This document shows positions 15,125 to 19,862 of a DNA stretch of 64,000 nt, piece by piece (within the stretch, counting starts at the first letter, position 1; each line of letters begins with the position of its first letter). The DNA lies in the NCBI GenBank assembly GCA_005222975.1, contig NJBI01000003.1:1-64000 (forward strand). The letters run 5' to 3'. The position numbers and the translations under genes were made by a program. The stretch is from Promethearchaeota archaeon Loki_b31. Lineage in GTDB: Archaea > Asgardarchaeota > Lokiarchaeia > Sigyniarchaeales > SOKP01. The notes beneath the pieces are model-generated. The model saw nothing but the letters and a program-made list of their open reading frames with translations, was not told the DNA's origin and did not search any database.

Positions 15125-15685
15125 TTAGGATCTCACAGAAAATGCTTGTTTTTCAAGCGGTTCTTTAACTAAACCATAATAATTACGCGCGATGTATACA
15201 ATTTGGTCTTGCTTTAAGGGATCTAGTTTTTTACCGGTTAATTTTTCCTCATCGACATGAACTGCCAAAACTTCACCTAAGTATATTATGTGACTGCCAC
15301 ACTTTATTTTTTTGATGACTTTACATTCGATATTAATCGGGAATTCTTTAATGATTGGTACTTCTACTTCAGAACCTTTTTGCTTCGTTAAGTTAAGTTC
15401 TTTCCATTTATCTACTTTCTTCCCCGTTCTCGTTCCACAAAAATCCATCTCTCGAATTTGGTTTGCGTTCGGAACGTTAACCACGAATTCCTCCAATTTT
15501 TCAATTAGGGAATACGAGTGCCTTGATGGTCGAATAGAAACGGAGATTACCGGCGGTTCAGATACTACTCGAGCAACCCACGCAAGTGTTATGAGATTTG
15601 CTTCGTCCCATTCACCTACCGAAACAACAACGGCAGGAGATACGATAGGAGTTGTTGTTTTATTAATTTGTATCTTCAAAAGCAT
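15125..15685 (-). CDS. Flavin reductase family protein (DIM6/NTAB)
   Basis: PPVISVSIRPSRHSY, EFVVNVP, ECKV...GSH...GEV. Confidence 0.9.
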   Translation of the reverse strand: MLLKIQINKTTTPIVSPAVVVSVGEWDEANLITLAWVARVVSEPPVISVSIRPSRHSYSLIEKLEEFVVNVPNANQIREMDFCGTRTGKKVDKWKELNLTKQKGSEVEVPIIKEFPINIECKVIKKIKCGSHIIYLGEVLAVHVDEEKLTGKKLDPLKQDQIVYIARNYYGLVKEPLEKQAFSVRS

Positions 15686-16518
15686 TAATCAACCCAAAAA
15701 TCTTTTGCCAATCGTCTTCTTGTTTGCCACAGACCACCCTTTTCAGTGAAACCAATTACACCTTTACCTTGATCAGCGTCTTTTATTTTCCACATCCCGC
15801 TAACAGCCCCAGTTAAAGCGCCGGATAAAACCTCAAAGCCTTGAGCAGTATATAAATCGCACTCTACTCCTCGATTAATAATAAATTTTAGTTGACGCAT
15901 ACCTTGCTGGTTTTTGGATTTAAGCACGTCCAATAACAGTTCTACTTCGGTATCAAGTTGGTCGTTGGGCACAACCCGGTTCCATAGATTCCATTCTACT
16001 GCCTTTTCTCCAGAGTGGAGCGCACCGATAAGATTAATTTCCTTAGCTCTCCTTCGGCCTATAAGTCGAGATAATCGCGTAGTACCACCCCAACCGGGAG
16101 TTATTCCGACATCTACTTCGGGCATGCCCCATTTCGAGCGCTCGGTGGCAATTACAAAATCACACACCATAGTAACTTCCAAACCCCCACCTACCGCATA
16201 ACCGTCTACTGCTGCAATTGTGATTTTATCTAACTCTTCGAGCTGATTAGCCATATTTTGATAGTATCTTACCCGTCTTGTTATATCATTTGCATTTCCC
16301 CACTTAATCATTTCTTTAATATCATCGCCCACGCAGAAATTATCACCCGCGCCCTTGATAACTAAGAATTTGAGTTTTGTAGACTGTCTTACGATTTCTA
16401 TAGCAGCAACTATCTCTTCAGAAAGTTTCATGCTTAACGCGTTCATGACATCAGGTCGATTGAGCGTTATCCAAGCCACTTGGTCCGTCTCTTTATAAAT
16501 TAAATTTTCGAATTTCAT
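15685..16518 (-). CDS. Enoyl-CoA hydratase/isomerase (crotonase family)
   Basis: LNRPDVMNAL, FCVGDDI, GYAVGGGLE, PEVDVGITPGWGGT. Confidence 0.9.
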   Translation of the reverse strand: MKFENLIYKETDQVAWITLNRPDVMNALSMKLSEEIVAAIEIVRQSTKLKFLVIKGAGDNFCVGDDIKEMIKWGNANDITRRVRYYQNMANQLEELDKITIAAVDGYAVGGGLEVTMVCDFVIATERSKWGMPEVDVGITPGWGGTTRLSRLIGRRRAKEINLIGALHSGEKAVEWNLWNRVVPNDQLDTEVELLLDVLKSKNQQGMRQLKFIINRGVECDLYTAQGFEVLSGALTGAVSGMWKIKDADQGKGVIGFTEKGGLWQTRRRLAKDFWVD

Positions 16519-16691
16519 AATTTATTTTTGATTTATTTTTATTTAAATGTATAGAACGAAGTTTATCATTAATTATTTTTTAGAGGTTATTGGAAGAGTT
16601 GTACGCCATACGGCTAGCCATTTTGTAGTTAGGTCATTTATGATTATTTCGTTATATTAAATTATATTTTTTTCAATTTAAGATTAAATAT

Positions 16692-16706
16692 GAGAAAATT
16701 TATAAA
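16692..16706 (+). promoter_or_regulatory. Archaeal BRE-TATA promoter of the leu-leader/leuS transcript
   Basis: Purine-rich GAGAAAA directly followed by TTTATAAA (16699-16706). The predicted TSS near 16729-16733 coincides with the uORF ATG. Confidence 0.65.
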
Positions 16707-16732
16707 ATACAATTAATATATTTTCTATAATA

Positions 16733-16819
16733 ATGATCTCTAATAATACTGCTTCAAGAAATTCAATAAGAGCTTTTATACTTCTAGGAGATTTGCTTTT
16801 AGCATTATTATTATTGTGA
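16733..16819 (+). CDS. Putative leucine-rich leader peptide of leuS, MISNNTASRNSIRAFILLGDLLLALLLL
   Basis: 28 codons. 9 of the last 12 are Leu (CTT, CTA, TTG, TTA) and none of the first 16. Ends about 140 bp upstream of leucyl-tRNA synthetase. Confidence 0.8.
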   Translation: MISNNTASRNSIRAFILLGDLLLALLLL

Positions 16820-16870
16820 GTGAAACAAATCCACTCGATCTTTTTCTATTAAATTTTCTATGGATTTGTT
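16817..16870 (+). promoter_or_regulatory. Putative attenuator: alternative hairpins and U-rich tracts after the leader stop
   Basis: Perfect 10-bp stem AACAAATCCA (16824-16833) / TGGATTTGTT (16861-16870) around a U-rich loop. Competing hairpin TGAGTG/CACTCG (16817-16837) includes the stop codon. Confidence 0.6.
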
Positions 16871-16961
16871 CTCTCTGGGTATAAAATTTAATTGAAAGAG
16901 GTCATAGGTGGGTTGCTTGCTCTATGGAGATAAAAAGTTAACTTGAAAATAAATAAAAATA

Positions 16962-19862
16962 GTGGTAAAATTTATGTATAGACCCCAAGAAATCGAAAAG
17001 AAATGGCAGGAAAAATGGGAACAAGCCAAAATTTTCGAAGCAAATCCAAATCCGGAGAAAAAGAAGATTTTTATAACATCTCCTTACCCATACGCTTCTG
17101 GGCCTTCACATATAGGCCATGGAAGGAGTTTTGTAAATGGAGATATATTTGCTAGGTATTATCGAGCTAAAGGGTATAACGTACTATATCCTATGGCTTT
17201 TCACATCACAGGTACTCCTGTTTTAGCAATCTCTTCTTCTATTGAAAGAAAGGATAAAGAGACTATAGAAAGGATGAAGGATTATGTATCTTTACACACT
17301 AAAAGTCGAGAAAAGGTAGGGAAGATTGTAGAAAGTTTTGTAGATCCTTGGAATATTGTCAACTATTTTTCTAAAACAATAAAAACTGATTTCAAATCGA
17401 TAGGAATGAGTTTAGATTGGAGAAGGGAATTTACTACGGGTGACAAGTTATATAACAAGCTGATTGAGTGGCAATATTACAAATTATCTGAGTTAGGGTA
17501 CTTGGAAAAAGGCGAATATCCCATTCTTTATTGTACGCGATGCGAAAATGCTGTAGGAGAGGACGATATAACAAGAGGAGACGAACTTGATTTGAACATA
17601 AACGAATACATTTGCATAAAATTTCCGTTTGAAGACGCTTATTTAGTACCTTCTACCTTAAGACCAGAAACTATATATGGTGCGACTAATCTATGGATAA
17701 ACCCAAATGGAATGTATGTTTACGCTAAAATCAACGGAGAGAAGTGGATTATTTCTGAAGATGCAACCAATCTTTTAAAAAATCAAAATAAAAATGTTAC
17801 CATACTTAAAAAAATTAAGGGAATGGAACTTATTGGTAAAAAGGTTAAGGCCATAGATGGAATCAGAGAGCTTTTAATATTACCAGGATATTTCGTAGAT
17901 ACTTCAGTAGCTACGGGCGTGGTCTACTCTGTGCCTGCTCATGCTCCTTATGACTACACCGCTTTAATTGATTTACAGAAAAATCATGAAATAATTAAAA
18001 AATTTAAATTAAACAAAGAAGAAATTAGTCAAATTAAGCCAATTCAAATTATAGATTTAGAAAGTTTCGATGAGATTCCAGCAAAAATTTATTGTGAAAA
18101 ATTTGGAGTTCAATCTCAAGAAGATATAGAGAAATTAGATAACGCAACTTCTGAAAATTATAAAATTGAATATTATAACGGCACTTTAAATGAAAAATGT
18201 GGAAAATACGAAGGAAAGCAGGTAAAAGAGGTAGTAGAGAATGTTATTGCGGAATTAATTGAGAGAAATAAGGCAGACAAATTGTACCTCCCAATTACTA
18301 AAAATCTTAAATGCAAGTGTGGAGAGCAGGTGATCGTCTCAATTTTGAAAGATCAATGGTTTCTAAATTTCAATGCGGGAAATTGGAAGCAGAAAGCATT
18401 TGAGTGCCTAAATAAAATGGAAATTGTCCCTAAAAAATATAGAATGAATTTTGAACATATATTTAATTGGTTAGAAAAGAGACCTTGTGCTAGAAAAAGA
18501 GGTTTAGGTACGAAACTTCCATTTGATAAAGATTGGATTATTGAATCATTAAGCGACTCTACAATATACATGAGCTTCTATACTATATTACATTTAATAA
18601 AAAAGAATAATATCAAATCAGAACAGCTTACACCAGAATTTTTTGACTATGTTTATTTAGATAAAGTTGATATCGTAGACTTGTCAAAAAAGACTAGCGT
18701 TGATTCGAAAGTATTGAAGCAAATGCAAGACGAATTTTCCTATTGGTATCCCGTTGATCATCGACACACAGCTATAATGCACATTTCTAATCATTTGAGT
18801 TTCTATATTTTCCATCATGTGGCTACATTTCCGGAAAAACTGTGGCCAAGAATTATTTCCCTTATCGAACCCGTAATTATAGAAGGTCAGAAAATGGGAA
18901 AGTCAAAAGGGAACGTTATTTCACTAGCAAACATTCAAACGAATTATTCCGCTGATTTATTTAGGTTTTATATATCTCACAGCGCAGATTTTGGAATAAG
19001 TGTAGATTGGAGGGAAAAACAAATACATACCGTAAAAAATCATATAAATCGATTTTACTCCTTTATCACAAAAAATATCAACAAGATAAATGATTATGAC
19101 GGAAAAATTGAAAATTTAAACGCGAAATATTCTAAGATTATCTTATCAAAATGTATAAGAAAATTTGTTGAAGCAGAAAGTGGATTGAAGGAACTCAATT
19201 TAAGAAAATACCTTCAATTATCATTTTACGAGGTTTTTAACTTATTACAAGAATTTAATAAGTACTCTAAAGATGAAAACGATCTAATAGAAGTATATAA
19301 GATTGTATTTCCTGAGTGGATCCAAATTCTTTCTTTAGCCATGCCTCACTTATGTGAAGAACTATGGGAATTGATGGGAAATACAGAGTTTTTATCAGAG
19401 ACTATTTGGGGTGATTTTAGCAGAAAGCACATAAATAACGAGCTCGAAAGAGAGTTTGAATATATTTCTAGTATTGTTGACGATATTTTAAACATAAAAA
19501 AAATTGTGAAATCTGGCGATTCAAGTAATATTTATTTATACACGGCTCCTAAATGGAAATACGAGGTTTATGATGTAATTATTTTAAAGAAGGGAAATTT
19601 CAAAGAAATTATAGATGAGTGTAAGCTCGATAATGGCTTAATGAAAAACAAAAATTTAATTTCATATATCAAAAACCAAATAAAAGATAGAATCTGGGAA
19701 AAGGAATTGATTAAGTTAAATGAGGAGGAACTTTTAGAAGAATACAAAGACCACATTGAAAAAAGGATAAACAACATAATAATTATTAATTCAGAATACG
19801 ATCCAAAAAACCGGTTGATAAAAGCTGTTCCTTATAGAGCAGCAATTTATATAGAAAATTAA
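16962..19862 (+). CDS. leuS: Leucine-tRNA ligase, archaeal/eukaryotic type
   Basis: HIGH, KMGKS, TLRPET editing-domain start, SVPAHAPYDY, WIIESLSDSTIYM. Confidence 0.97.
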   Translation: MVKFMYRPQEIEKKWQEKWEQAKIFEANPNPEKKKIFITSPYPYASGPSHIGHGRSFVNGDIFARYYRAKGYNVLYPMAFHITGTPVLAISSSIERKDKETIERMKDYVSLHTKSREKVGKIVESFVDPWNIVNYFSKTIKTDFKSIGMSLDWRREFTTGDKLYNKLIEWQYYKLSELGYLEKGEYPILYCTRCENAVGEDDITRGDELDLNINEYICIKFPFEDAYLVPSTLRPETIYGATNLWINPNGMYVYAKINGEKWIISEDATNLLKNQNKNVTILKKIKGMELIGKKVKAIDGIRELLILPGYFVDTSVATGVVYSVPAHAPYDYTALIDLQKNHEIIKKFKLNKEEISQIKPIQIIDLESFDEIPAKIYCEKFGVQSQEDIEKLDNATSENYKIEYYNGTLNEKCGKYEGKQVKEVVENVIAELIERNKADKLYLPITKNLKCKCGEQVIVSILKDQWFLNFNAGNWKQKAFECLNKMEIVPKKYRMNFEHIFNWLEKRPCARKRGLGTKLPFDKDWIIESLSDSTIYMSFYTILHLIKKNNIKSEQLTPEFFDYVYLDKVDIVDLSKKTSVDSKVLKQMQDEFSYWYPVDHRHTAIMHISNHLSFYIFHHVATFPEKLWPRIISLIEPVIIEGQKMGKSKGNVISLANIQTNYSADLFRFYISHSADFGISVDWREKQIHTVKNHINRFYSFITKNINKINDYDGKIENLNAKYSKIILSKCIRKFVEAESGLKELNLRKYLQLSFYEVFNLLQEFNKYSKDENDLIEVYKIVFPEWIQILSLAMPHLCEELWELMGNTEFLSETIWGDFSRKHINNELEREFEYISSIVDDILNIKKIVKSGDSSNIYLYTAPKWKYEVYDVIILKKGNFKEIIDECKLDNGLMKNKNLISYIKNQIKDRIWEKELIKLNEEELLEEYKDHIEKRINNIIIINSEYDPKNRLIKAVPYRAAIYIEN

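Follow-up and report, generated by a model that had tools for sequence, protein, structure and literature searches.

In the genome of an Asgard archaeon, a short reading frame that ends in a run of leucine codons stands ahead of a gene for leucyl-tRNA synthetase. The question raised by this locus is whether the two are linked by attenuation, that is, whether a ribosome on the short frame decides if the polymerase goes on into the synthetase gene. According to a 2021 paper on transcription in archaea, there is no known case of attenuation or antitermination in this domain (PMC8448881), and our own literature searches found no published archaeal attenuator. The DNA analysed here, called the window, is a stretch of 64,000 nucleotides from Promethearchaeota archaeon Loki_b31, and all positions below are counted from its first letter.

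Leader ORF, promoter and downstream gene

The promoter, the leader ORF (uORF) and the gene that follows were located as given below.

16692-16707, forward strand: BRE-like purine stretch and TATA box, GAGAAAA-TTTATAAAA (TATA box at 16699-16707), as read in the sequence
16733-16819, forward strand: predicted leaderless leader ORF of 28 codons, MISNNTASRNSIRAFILLGDLLLALLLL and stop, from the translated reading frame; Leu run at 16781-16816, stop codon TGA at 16817-16819
16974-19862, forward strand: leuS, archaeal-type leucyl-tRNA synthetase of 962 aa, with HIGH and KMSKS-type motifs and a TIGR00395 (leuS_arch) score of 938 bits

A first-pass annotation, made from the letters of the window, had placed a 28-aa uORF at the ATG at 16733, with a Leu-rich end that draws on four types of Leu codon, and we found it to be present exactly there. 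Leu takes up 9 of the final 12 codons, the codons used being CTT, CTA, TTG and TTA. When 3,524 small intergenic ATG ORFs of the same genome (12-45 codons) were ranked by Leu richness the uORF came out on top, and as it is the sole one to reach 9 Leu in a 12-codon window, it exceeds the expectation by chance. A repeat or mobile element was also considered as the identity of the leader and is excluded, since the leader is single-copy in the genome. On comparing leuS loci of the same genus for which upstream DNA is available, the uORF was found to be kept in all 27, with a length of 27-32 codons and at a distance of 205-250 nt from leuS, and each of these uORFs ends in a Leu run (for example LLAVLLLLL or LLQALLQLLL). 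Of the two other frames across this span, one is open in none of the 27 loci and the other in 3, and every indel in the uORF is a multiple of 3. Leu is retained in the orthologs by synonymous change among TTA, TTG, CTT, CTA, CTG and CTC, including changes from CTN to TTR, and the middle of the peptide drifts and is poorly conserved. The more distant archaeal-type LeuRS loci L021 and L022 (43-45% identity) were searched as well and the leader is absent from them. It may be noted that a hairpin can also be drawn within the uORF itself (columns 10-20 with 67-77 of alignment A1), in which 81.5% of the cells are paired; a slide by +3 still gives 77%, which comes from TTA repeats, and the hairpin was not retained.

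The gene after the leader had been called leuS, and this assignment is borne out by the TIGR00395 score, with the correction that its ATG lies at 16974. The genome has a second LeuRS on another contig, a bacterial-type protein of 928 aa (TIGR00396, 969 bits). The archaeal-type leuS occurs in 29 of 42 genomes of the genus and is absent from several genomes with a completeness of 95-100%, which makes the gene an accessory one. The gene in the window is therefore the second, accessory archaeal-type LeuRS and not the universal one of the lineage; the LeuRS found throughout the order is of bacterial type with an archaeal-like C-terminal part. We also observed that the 9-nt string ATGTATAGA that opens leuS (16974-16982) recurs 427 nt upstream at 16547-16555. 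There it opens an ORF of 37 codons (16547-16660, MYRTKF...), and a similar MYRT... ORF is seen in the closest relative (L004). The repeated string may be a relic of gene insertion or duplication, or may be due to chance.

Upstream, the BRE-TATA lies where the first-pass annotation had put it. In 76 leaders the consensus BRE/TATA aaAAAAtTTTtATaatA stands 41 to 25 nt 5′ of the uORF ATG, and from this spacing transcription is predicted to start within a few bases of the ATG, so that the uORF would be a leaderless mini-gene. The RNA data that we used are Logan assembled contigs from a related strain (~96% identical), which cannot prove ends or levels and whose depths and breaks are uninformative on termination. 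The 5′ end of one metatranscriptome contig is at 16727, about 24 nt past the centre of the TATA box and about 6 nt ahead of the uORF ATG, which agrees with the start that had been predicted near 16733. The contigs cover 16727-16836, 16807-18577 and 16816-17850, the latter two bridging the leader and leuS. No RNA contig lies over 16554-16726, and in assembled contigs of this kind a stretch without cover is not evidence. The RNA contigs thus fit transcription that begins near 16727 and continues through the leader into leuS.

Competing folds of the leader RNA

The RNA that follows the Leu run can be divided into segments that take part in one or both of two folds.

16818-16833, forward strand: segment A, 5′ arm of the first helix (putative antiterminator), which starts inside or right after the stop codon; inverted repeat I19
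16837-16860, forward strand: segment B, T-rich, GATCTTTTTCTATTAAATTTTCTA, which is either the loop of A:C or the 5′ arm of the long hairpin; inverted repeat I1
16861-16875, forward strand: segment C, 3′ arm of helix A:C, TGGATTTGTTCTCTC; inverted repeat I19, folds and covariation
16880-16903, forward strand: segment D, A-rich 3′ arm that pairs with B, TATAAAATTTAATTGAAAGAGGTC; fold and inverted repeat I1
16907-16922, forward strand: segment E, GGTGGGTT, which pairs with 16828-16835 and provides outer closing pairs of the long hairpin; fold
16913-16923, forward strand: pyrimidine/U-rich tail TTGCTTGCTCT, which overlaps the outer closing pairs and then extends past them

A perfect 10-bp stem (16824-33/16861-70) with U-tracts enclosed had been described after the stop codon; it is present as inverted repeat I19, with T-tracts inside, and it is both conserved and covarying. 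The proposed competing pairing that includes the stop codon can be read in the sequence as GAGTG (16818-22) with CACTC (16831-35). The conserved alternative to the stem is a longer hairpin that had been missed, in which 16818-16860 pairs with 16876-16922 and whose inverted-repeat arms are 16837-60/16880-903 (I1). This long hairpin is the minimum-free-energy fold of 16810-16935 (-33.3 kcal/mol, z = -3.67; 0 of 200 shuffles fold as well). The 3′ part of segment A (16828-16835) doubles as its outer 5′ arm, and since it uses some nucleotides from the 5′ arm of the 10-bp stem and also pairs the T-rich loop of that stem, the two folds compete. A further pairing that had been suggested, GAUUUG with the CAAAUC arm, is readable in the window (GATTTG at 16790-95, CAAATC at 16826-31), but it was dropped because on inspection by eye it has no constant register among the orthologs. 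In several orthologs a second small ORF overlaps the stop of the uORF (ATGA or GTGA; M-S/N-E/D-T-N/S-P-L...). The overlap is not kept, and the conservation beneath it is that of RNA segment A, so this ORF was rejected as a gene.

Both folds recur in the orthologs. Helix A:C starts at the stop codon with energies of -13 to -18.5 kcal/mol (mean z = -4.0 against shuffles). The long hairpin A′B:DE has energies of -19 to -29 kcal/mol over the span that was compared with shuffles (mean z = -2.6) and is the minimum-free-energy fold in nearly all of them. The core of segment B, TCTTTTTCT, is nearly invariant among the aligned orthologs and leaders. Pairing and covariation were counted explicitly for each helix, as RNAalifold returned only 5 pairs on the whole-leader alignment, a scarcity that we attribute to the competition of two folds. 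The counts are as follows.

Helix A:C, 24 sequences, sequence-only alignment: 88.8% of cells paired; double changes at 7 of 13 pairs; covariation score reached by 0 of 500 shuffles
Long hairpin, 24 sequences, sequence-only alignment: 80% paired; double changes at 5 of 21 pairs; modest covariation
Long hairpin, 78 leaders, alignment by a covariance model built on the long hairpin and so fitted to that structure, a caveat for these counts: 80.4% paired; double changes at 20 of 21 pairs; score 0.287 against 0.162 in shuffles (0 of 500 reach it) and 0.07-0.12 when slid
Helix A:C, 78 leaders, same alignment, which is not fitted to A:C: 83.6% paired; double changes at 12 of 13 pairs; score 0.233 against 0.157

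The core helix B:D is 88-91% paired. Helix A:C and the long hairpin have four or five nucleotides in common (alignment columns 50-53/54, of which columns 50-53 correspond to 16830-16833 in the window), and because these are shared and segment B lies within the loop of A:C, both helices cannot form in full together. The position of the stop codon relative to this switch is nearly fixed, the uORF ending 0 nt from helix A in 61 of 77 leaders and between -3 and +1 in 75 of 77.

The 3′ side of the long hairpin is less distinct. In the 78 leaders the T content of the first 6 nt past the hairpin is 59% against 34% genome-wide, but a run of at least 4 T follows the hairpin in just 19 of the 78, so the U-tail is weak, and a scan of the window for consensus terminators found none. 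We also calculated duplex energies between the switch segments (A, B, C and D/E) and the ribosome-binding site of leuS, and these are like those of shuffles (mean z -0.6 to +0.4). As the switch has no such pairing, simple translational occlusion of leuS is unlikely and control by premature termination is favoured.

Distribution of the leader and exchange of its codon run

With the covariance model the leader was detected in 88 of the 126 genomes that belong to one Promethearchaeia family, spread over nine genera, and no match was obtained in 24 genomes sampled from other families of the class. A further 54 leader matches were retrieved for comparison of the downstream gene with the codon run. 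The ORF is open in all leaders. On sorting the loci by the gene downstream, the following groups were obtained.

LeuRS, 45 loci (41 archaeal-type, 2 bacterial-type, 2 divergent archaeal/eukaryal-like): last 10 codons with 4-8 Leu, 0 Ile (1 in one leader) and 0-3 Val; the Leu count holds for 44 of the 45 leaders, the uORF of L176 having been read by eye
FrhB/FdhB-like domain fused to a TrmB-type helix-turn-helix, 14 loci: last 10 codons with 4-7 Ile and 1-3 Val
Small ORFs convergent with an aminotransferase gene, 19 loci: last 10 codons mostly with 3-6 Val and 3-5 Leu
Acyl-CoA dehydrogenase, 1 locus: last 10 codons with 7 Val

The amino acid of the run thus partitions with the downstream gene on a constant RNA scaffold. 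The leaders are mutually related, and the match of run and gene rests on few independent events, namely the three LeuRS types and an IleRS leader that is described below; all of these match the cognate amino acid.

Several features of these loci may be recorded here. Leu-run leaders on the same scaffold precede other LeuRS types at L176 and L187 (genus g22) and at L188 and L192 (genus g18), namely a LeuRS of bacterial type in another genus and a divergent third type, archaeal/eukaryal-like, with the motif FPYLNGPPHLGHG. The FrhB-TrmB loci (L137-L144, L147, L181-L183, L190 and L191) have an Ile/Val-rich leader, for example MISNNTATRTLGRVLISLSIIIVVVLII before its stop, with the same switch; the gene itself encodes about 480 aa, in which a 2x[4Fe-4S] FrhB/FdhB-like domain is fused to the TrmB-type helix-turn-helix. 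The Val/Leu leaders (L145, L150, L171-L173, L175, L178-L180, L185, L186, L193, L194, L197 and L201) precede a strong Shine-Dalgarno sequence (GGAGG) with one or two small ORFs of about 45-80 aa that have no Pfam match. These small ORFs are convergent with a class I/II aminotransferase gene of the opposite strand and meet it at its 3′ end. As the small ORFs converge on that 3′ end, antisense control of the aminotransferase gene is conceivable. At L196 (genome G151) a Val-run leader, MLTNNNTKNTLSSVVVVDVVVVLL before its stop, stands on the same scaffold ahead of a gene of the acyl-CoA dehydrogenase family.

It had also been suggested to look for uORFs rich in cognate codons before other aminoacyl-tRNA synthetase genes, and one such gene was found. 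An Ile-rich uORF of 24 codons, MNEKSKFLVLTSIFIEIISDIIIR before its stop (23-24 codons across the loci, with an end of the form ...FIEIISDIIIR), lies in the leader at 5902-6107 of contig C38 of the same genome (G000; = L042:403-608), 131 nt before the gene of a 951-aa spare MupA/B-like IleRS, and it is kept in 8 of 8 orthologs. This leader has an invariant GGATGTGG just 5′ of the uORF, an invariant CCACATCC about 60 nt past the stop and a hairpin TGAAAC...GTTTCA with compensatory changes, and its RNA scaffold is unrelated to that of the leuS leader. Among the other class I genes of the genome, those for ValRS, the bacterial-type LeuRS, MetRS and a CysRS-like protein have no cognate-rich uORF upstream, and the leader is absent from the distant IleRS loci L052-L056. 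By a PF00133 search of this 92%-complete genome (contigs C1, C38, C19 and C6), the 951-aa protein is the sole IleRS, and an IleRS of about 1,060 aa as in the relatives was not found. Candidate tRNA-like sequences were seen by eye directly upstream of valS (contig C19) and of the CysRS-like gene (C87).

The occurrence of such leaders at a spare LeuRS and a spare IleRS suggests that back-up synthetases are induced on charging failure. Bacteria provide a parallel in their inducible second synthetases, some of which give resistance to natural synthetase inhibitors.

Proposed switch, alternatives and known systems

The leader has several elements of a classical attenuator: a uORF of cognate codons with a maintained frame, helices that exclude each other through shared nucleotides and a stop codon so placed that a ribosome there would occlude the 5′ arm of the antiterminator. 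We propose, with a probability of about two in three, that it is a ribosome-read sensor of Leu-tRNA charging, in which stalling leads to read-through into leuS and smooth translation leads to the long hairpin as a premature terminator. We infer the translation of the uORF, the terminator role of the long hairpin and the polarity. Transcription would begin a few bases before the ATG at 16733 and so yield a leaderless mini-gene, on which a ribosome would read 28 codons, through the Leu-rich last 12, to a stop codon that touches segment A. When charged tRNA-Leu is plentiful, the ribosome at the stop would cover A and block its pairing with C; B would then pair with D and A′ with E, giving the long hairpin and U-rich tail, the putative premature terminator. 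When charged tRNA-Leu is scarce, the ribosome would stall early in the Leu run and leave A free to pair with C as soon as C is made, which would trap B in the loop, block the long hairpin and let the polymerase continue into leuS. Such a device would switch on the spare archaeal-type LeuRS, beside the bacterial-type one, when charging of Leu-tRNA drops.

The covariation of the helices, the geometry of stop codon and helix and the match of codon run with gene support the core idea of a Leu-codon leader peptide that toggles the RNA. The attenuation reading of the first-pass annotation is upheld to this extent, that the putative ribosome-read Leu leader before leuS has a conserved uORF and stem, a stop at the 5′ arm and a run that tracks the gene. 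Its anatomy had to be revised. The 5′ arm of the stem could be masked from the stop codon as had been suggested, but the alternative state is not just a matter of exposed U-tracts. In the conserved alternative, the U-rich stretch is paired to an A-rich arm further downstream, in a covarying hairpin that has a U-rich tail. The weak U-tail, the terminator scan and the modest covariation of the long hairpin in 24 sequences weigh against our explanation. Archaeal termination depends mainly on oligo-T and aCPSF1/FttA rather than on hairpins, and this too counts against a hairpin terminator. It may be noted in this regard that, as reviewed, archaeal RNA polymerase can stop at bacterial-like terminators and a hairpin enhances termination (PMC13675443).

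The same ribosome-read switch might operate with the opposite polarity or a different output, so that segment B, exposed in the 27-nt loop of A:C, is a target of aCPSF1/FttA for cleavage and termination or of decay, and is protected by the long hairpin; the gene would then be on when Leu is plentiful and off when the ribosome stalls. We consider this unlikely, though several observations speak for it. No other T-rich element of the leader is as conserved as segment B, and the tail past the hairpin is only moderately U-rich. U-tracts are described as central to termination in archaea, with FttA/aCPSF1 as an aid (PMC13675443; see also PMC7515710 and PMC11616081). The Val-run leader before the catabolic-looking acyl-CoA dehydrogenase gene would fit this polarity better, since a catabolic gene, if it is one, is expected to be induced by plenty and not by shortage. 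On the other hand, the conservation of B is explained equally by its covarying pairing with D, and T is enriched right after the hairpin. Lowering a synthetase when charged tRNA is scarce would moreover contradict the known leaders of aminoacyl-tRNA synthetase genes (pheM-pheST, T-boxes and the predicted Streptomyces leuS attenuators, PMC1262725).

Two other explanations do without sensing by codons. The small ORF might encode a functional micropeptide with a hydrophobic tail, the RNA being its own 3′ element or terminator and leuS having a separate downstream promoter, with no sensing of amino acids. The N-terminus (MISNNTA-like) and the hydrophobic C-terminus are indeed shared by all flavours of the leader, and segment D holds a TATA-like TATAAAAT. 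Leu, Ile and Val tails are chemically alike, yet they are split cleanly by the downstream gene; in addition the middle of the peptide is poorly conserved, a hydrophobic tail of 9 residues is too short for a membrane span, B and D covary as a helix and the RNA contigs extend from upstream of D into leuS. Conservation of the N-terminal codons could also come from pairing with the codon run, for which the evidence is weak. Altogether we regard a micropeptide as quite improbable. The leader might otherwise be bound by a protein or a tRNA (autoregulation by LeuRS through tRNA mimicry, or a T-box-like device), with a static fold to which the uORF is incidental. The order A, B, C, D would allow A:C and part of B:D to coexist as a loop-to-tail pseudoknot, and a static structure of this kind could be envisaged. 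The two helices share nucleotides, however, and the ORF is kept open in all leaders. The same scaffold also stands before unrelated genes (FrhB-TrmB, small ORFs, acyl-CoA dehydrogenase) with the codon run alone changed, which a LeuRS-specific site does not explain. An Rfam scan of 15500-18000 with E up to 10 gave matches at chance level only, the best being Phe_leader (19.9 bits, E = 4, where the cut-off is 55 bits), and the T-box and the Leu, Phe, Thr, His and Trp leader families have no match at gathering score. We therefore give the binding leader a very small probability indeed.

Returning to the attenuator, we lean slightly towards a more general statement. It is that one Promethearchaeia family has a modular leaderless attenuator, in which a constant RNA switch is combined with an exchangeable run (Leu, Ile/Val or Val) and tRNA charging sets the transcription of spare synthetases and other genes. 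If true, Archaea would have their first case of transcription attenuation mediated by the ribosome, and there would be direct genetic evidence that transcription is functionally coupled to translation in the prokaryotes most closely related to eukaryotes. From a conserved leader whose runs can be exchanged it would follow that archaeal ribosomes gauge the supply of amino acids, that folding of nascent RNA can steer archaeal polymerase or termination factors, and that Asgard archaea have a functional coupling of the two processes. With a length of about 200 nt, the leader is a compact test object for archaeal termination and coupling.

Among known systems, the enterobacterial leuL, ilvL and ivbL leader peptides of about 14-32 codons end in runs of Leu or of mixed Ile, Val and Leu. 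Our leaders resemble them in having the run at the end of the peptide, and the Ile/Val flavour (...SLSIIIVVVLII) resembles ilvL. The enterobacterial leaders control biosynthetic operons, whereas the targets here are synthetases, the FrhB-TrmB fusion, small ORFs and an acyl-CoA dehydrogenase, and one scaffold serves several runs. The T-box of Firmicutes is likewise a cis leader that induces a synthetase, often a spare paralog, in response to uncharged cognate tRNA, but T-boxes bind the tRNA directly and have no leader peptide, and no T-box match was obtained here. In mycobacteria, ribosomes that stall on leaderless polycysteine sORFs open up a structure in which a downstream ribosome-binding site is hidden (bioRxiv 10.1101/834739). 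These sORFs share with our case a leaderless sensory short ORF, pausing on a codon run and several loci of one design; they differ in that here no segment pairs with the ribosome-binding site of leuS, the structure lying 50-70 nt upstream of that site. The layout is also close to that of E. coli pheM-pheST and of the classical attenuators predicted for leuS and trpS of Streptomyces (PMC1262725), where an aminoacyl-tRNA synthetase gene follows a short ORF rich in cognate codons, antiterminator and terminator helices compete and the ORF ends where a ribosome would mask the antiterminator. In contrast to these, the leader described here has archaeal TBP/TFB-type promoters, another RNA polymerase with other termination factors, a leaderless uORF, no kinship in sequence or Rfam family, a tail that is moderately U-rich and a spare paralog as its target, and it is a prediction from sequence. 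What emerges looks like a bacterial type of control in a domain in which it has so far been undescribed.
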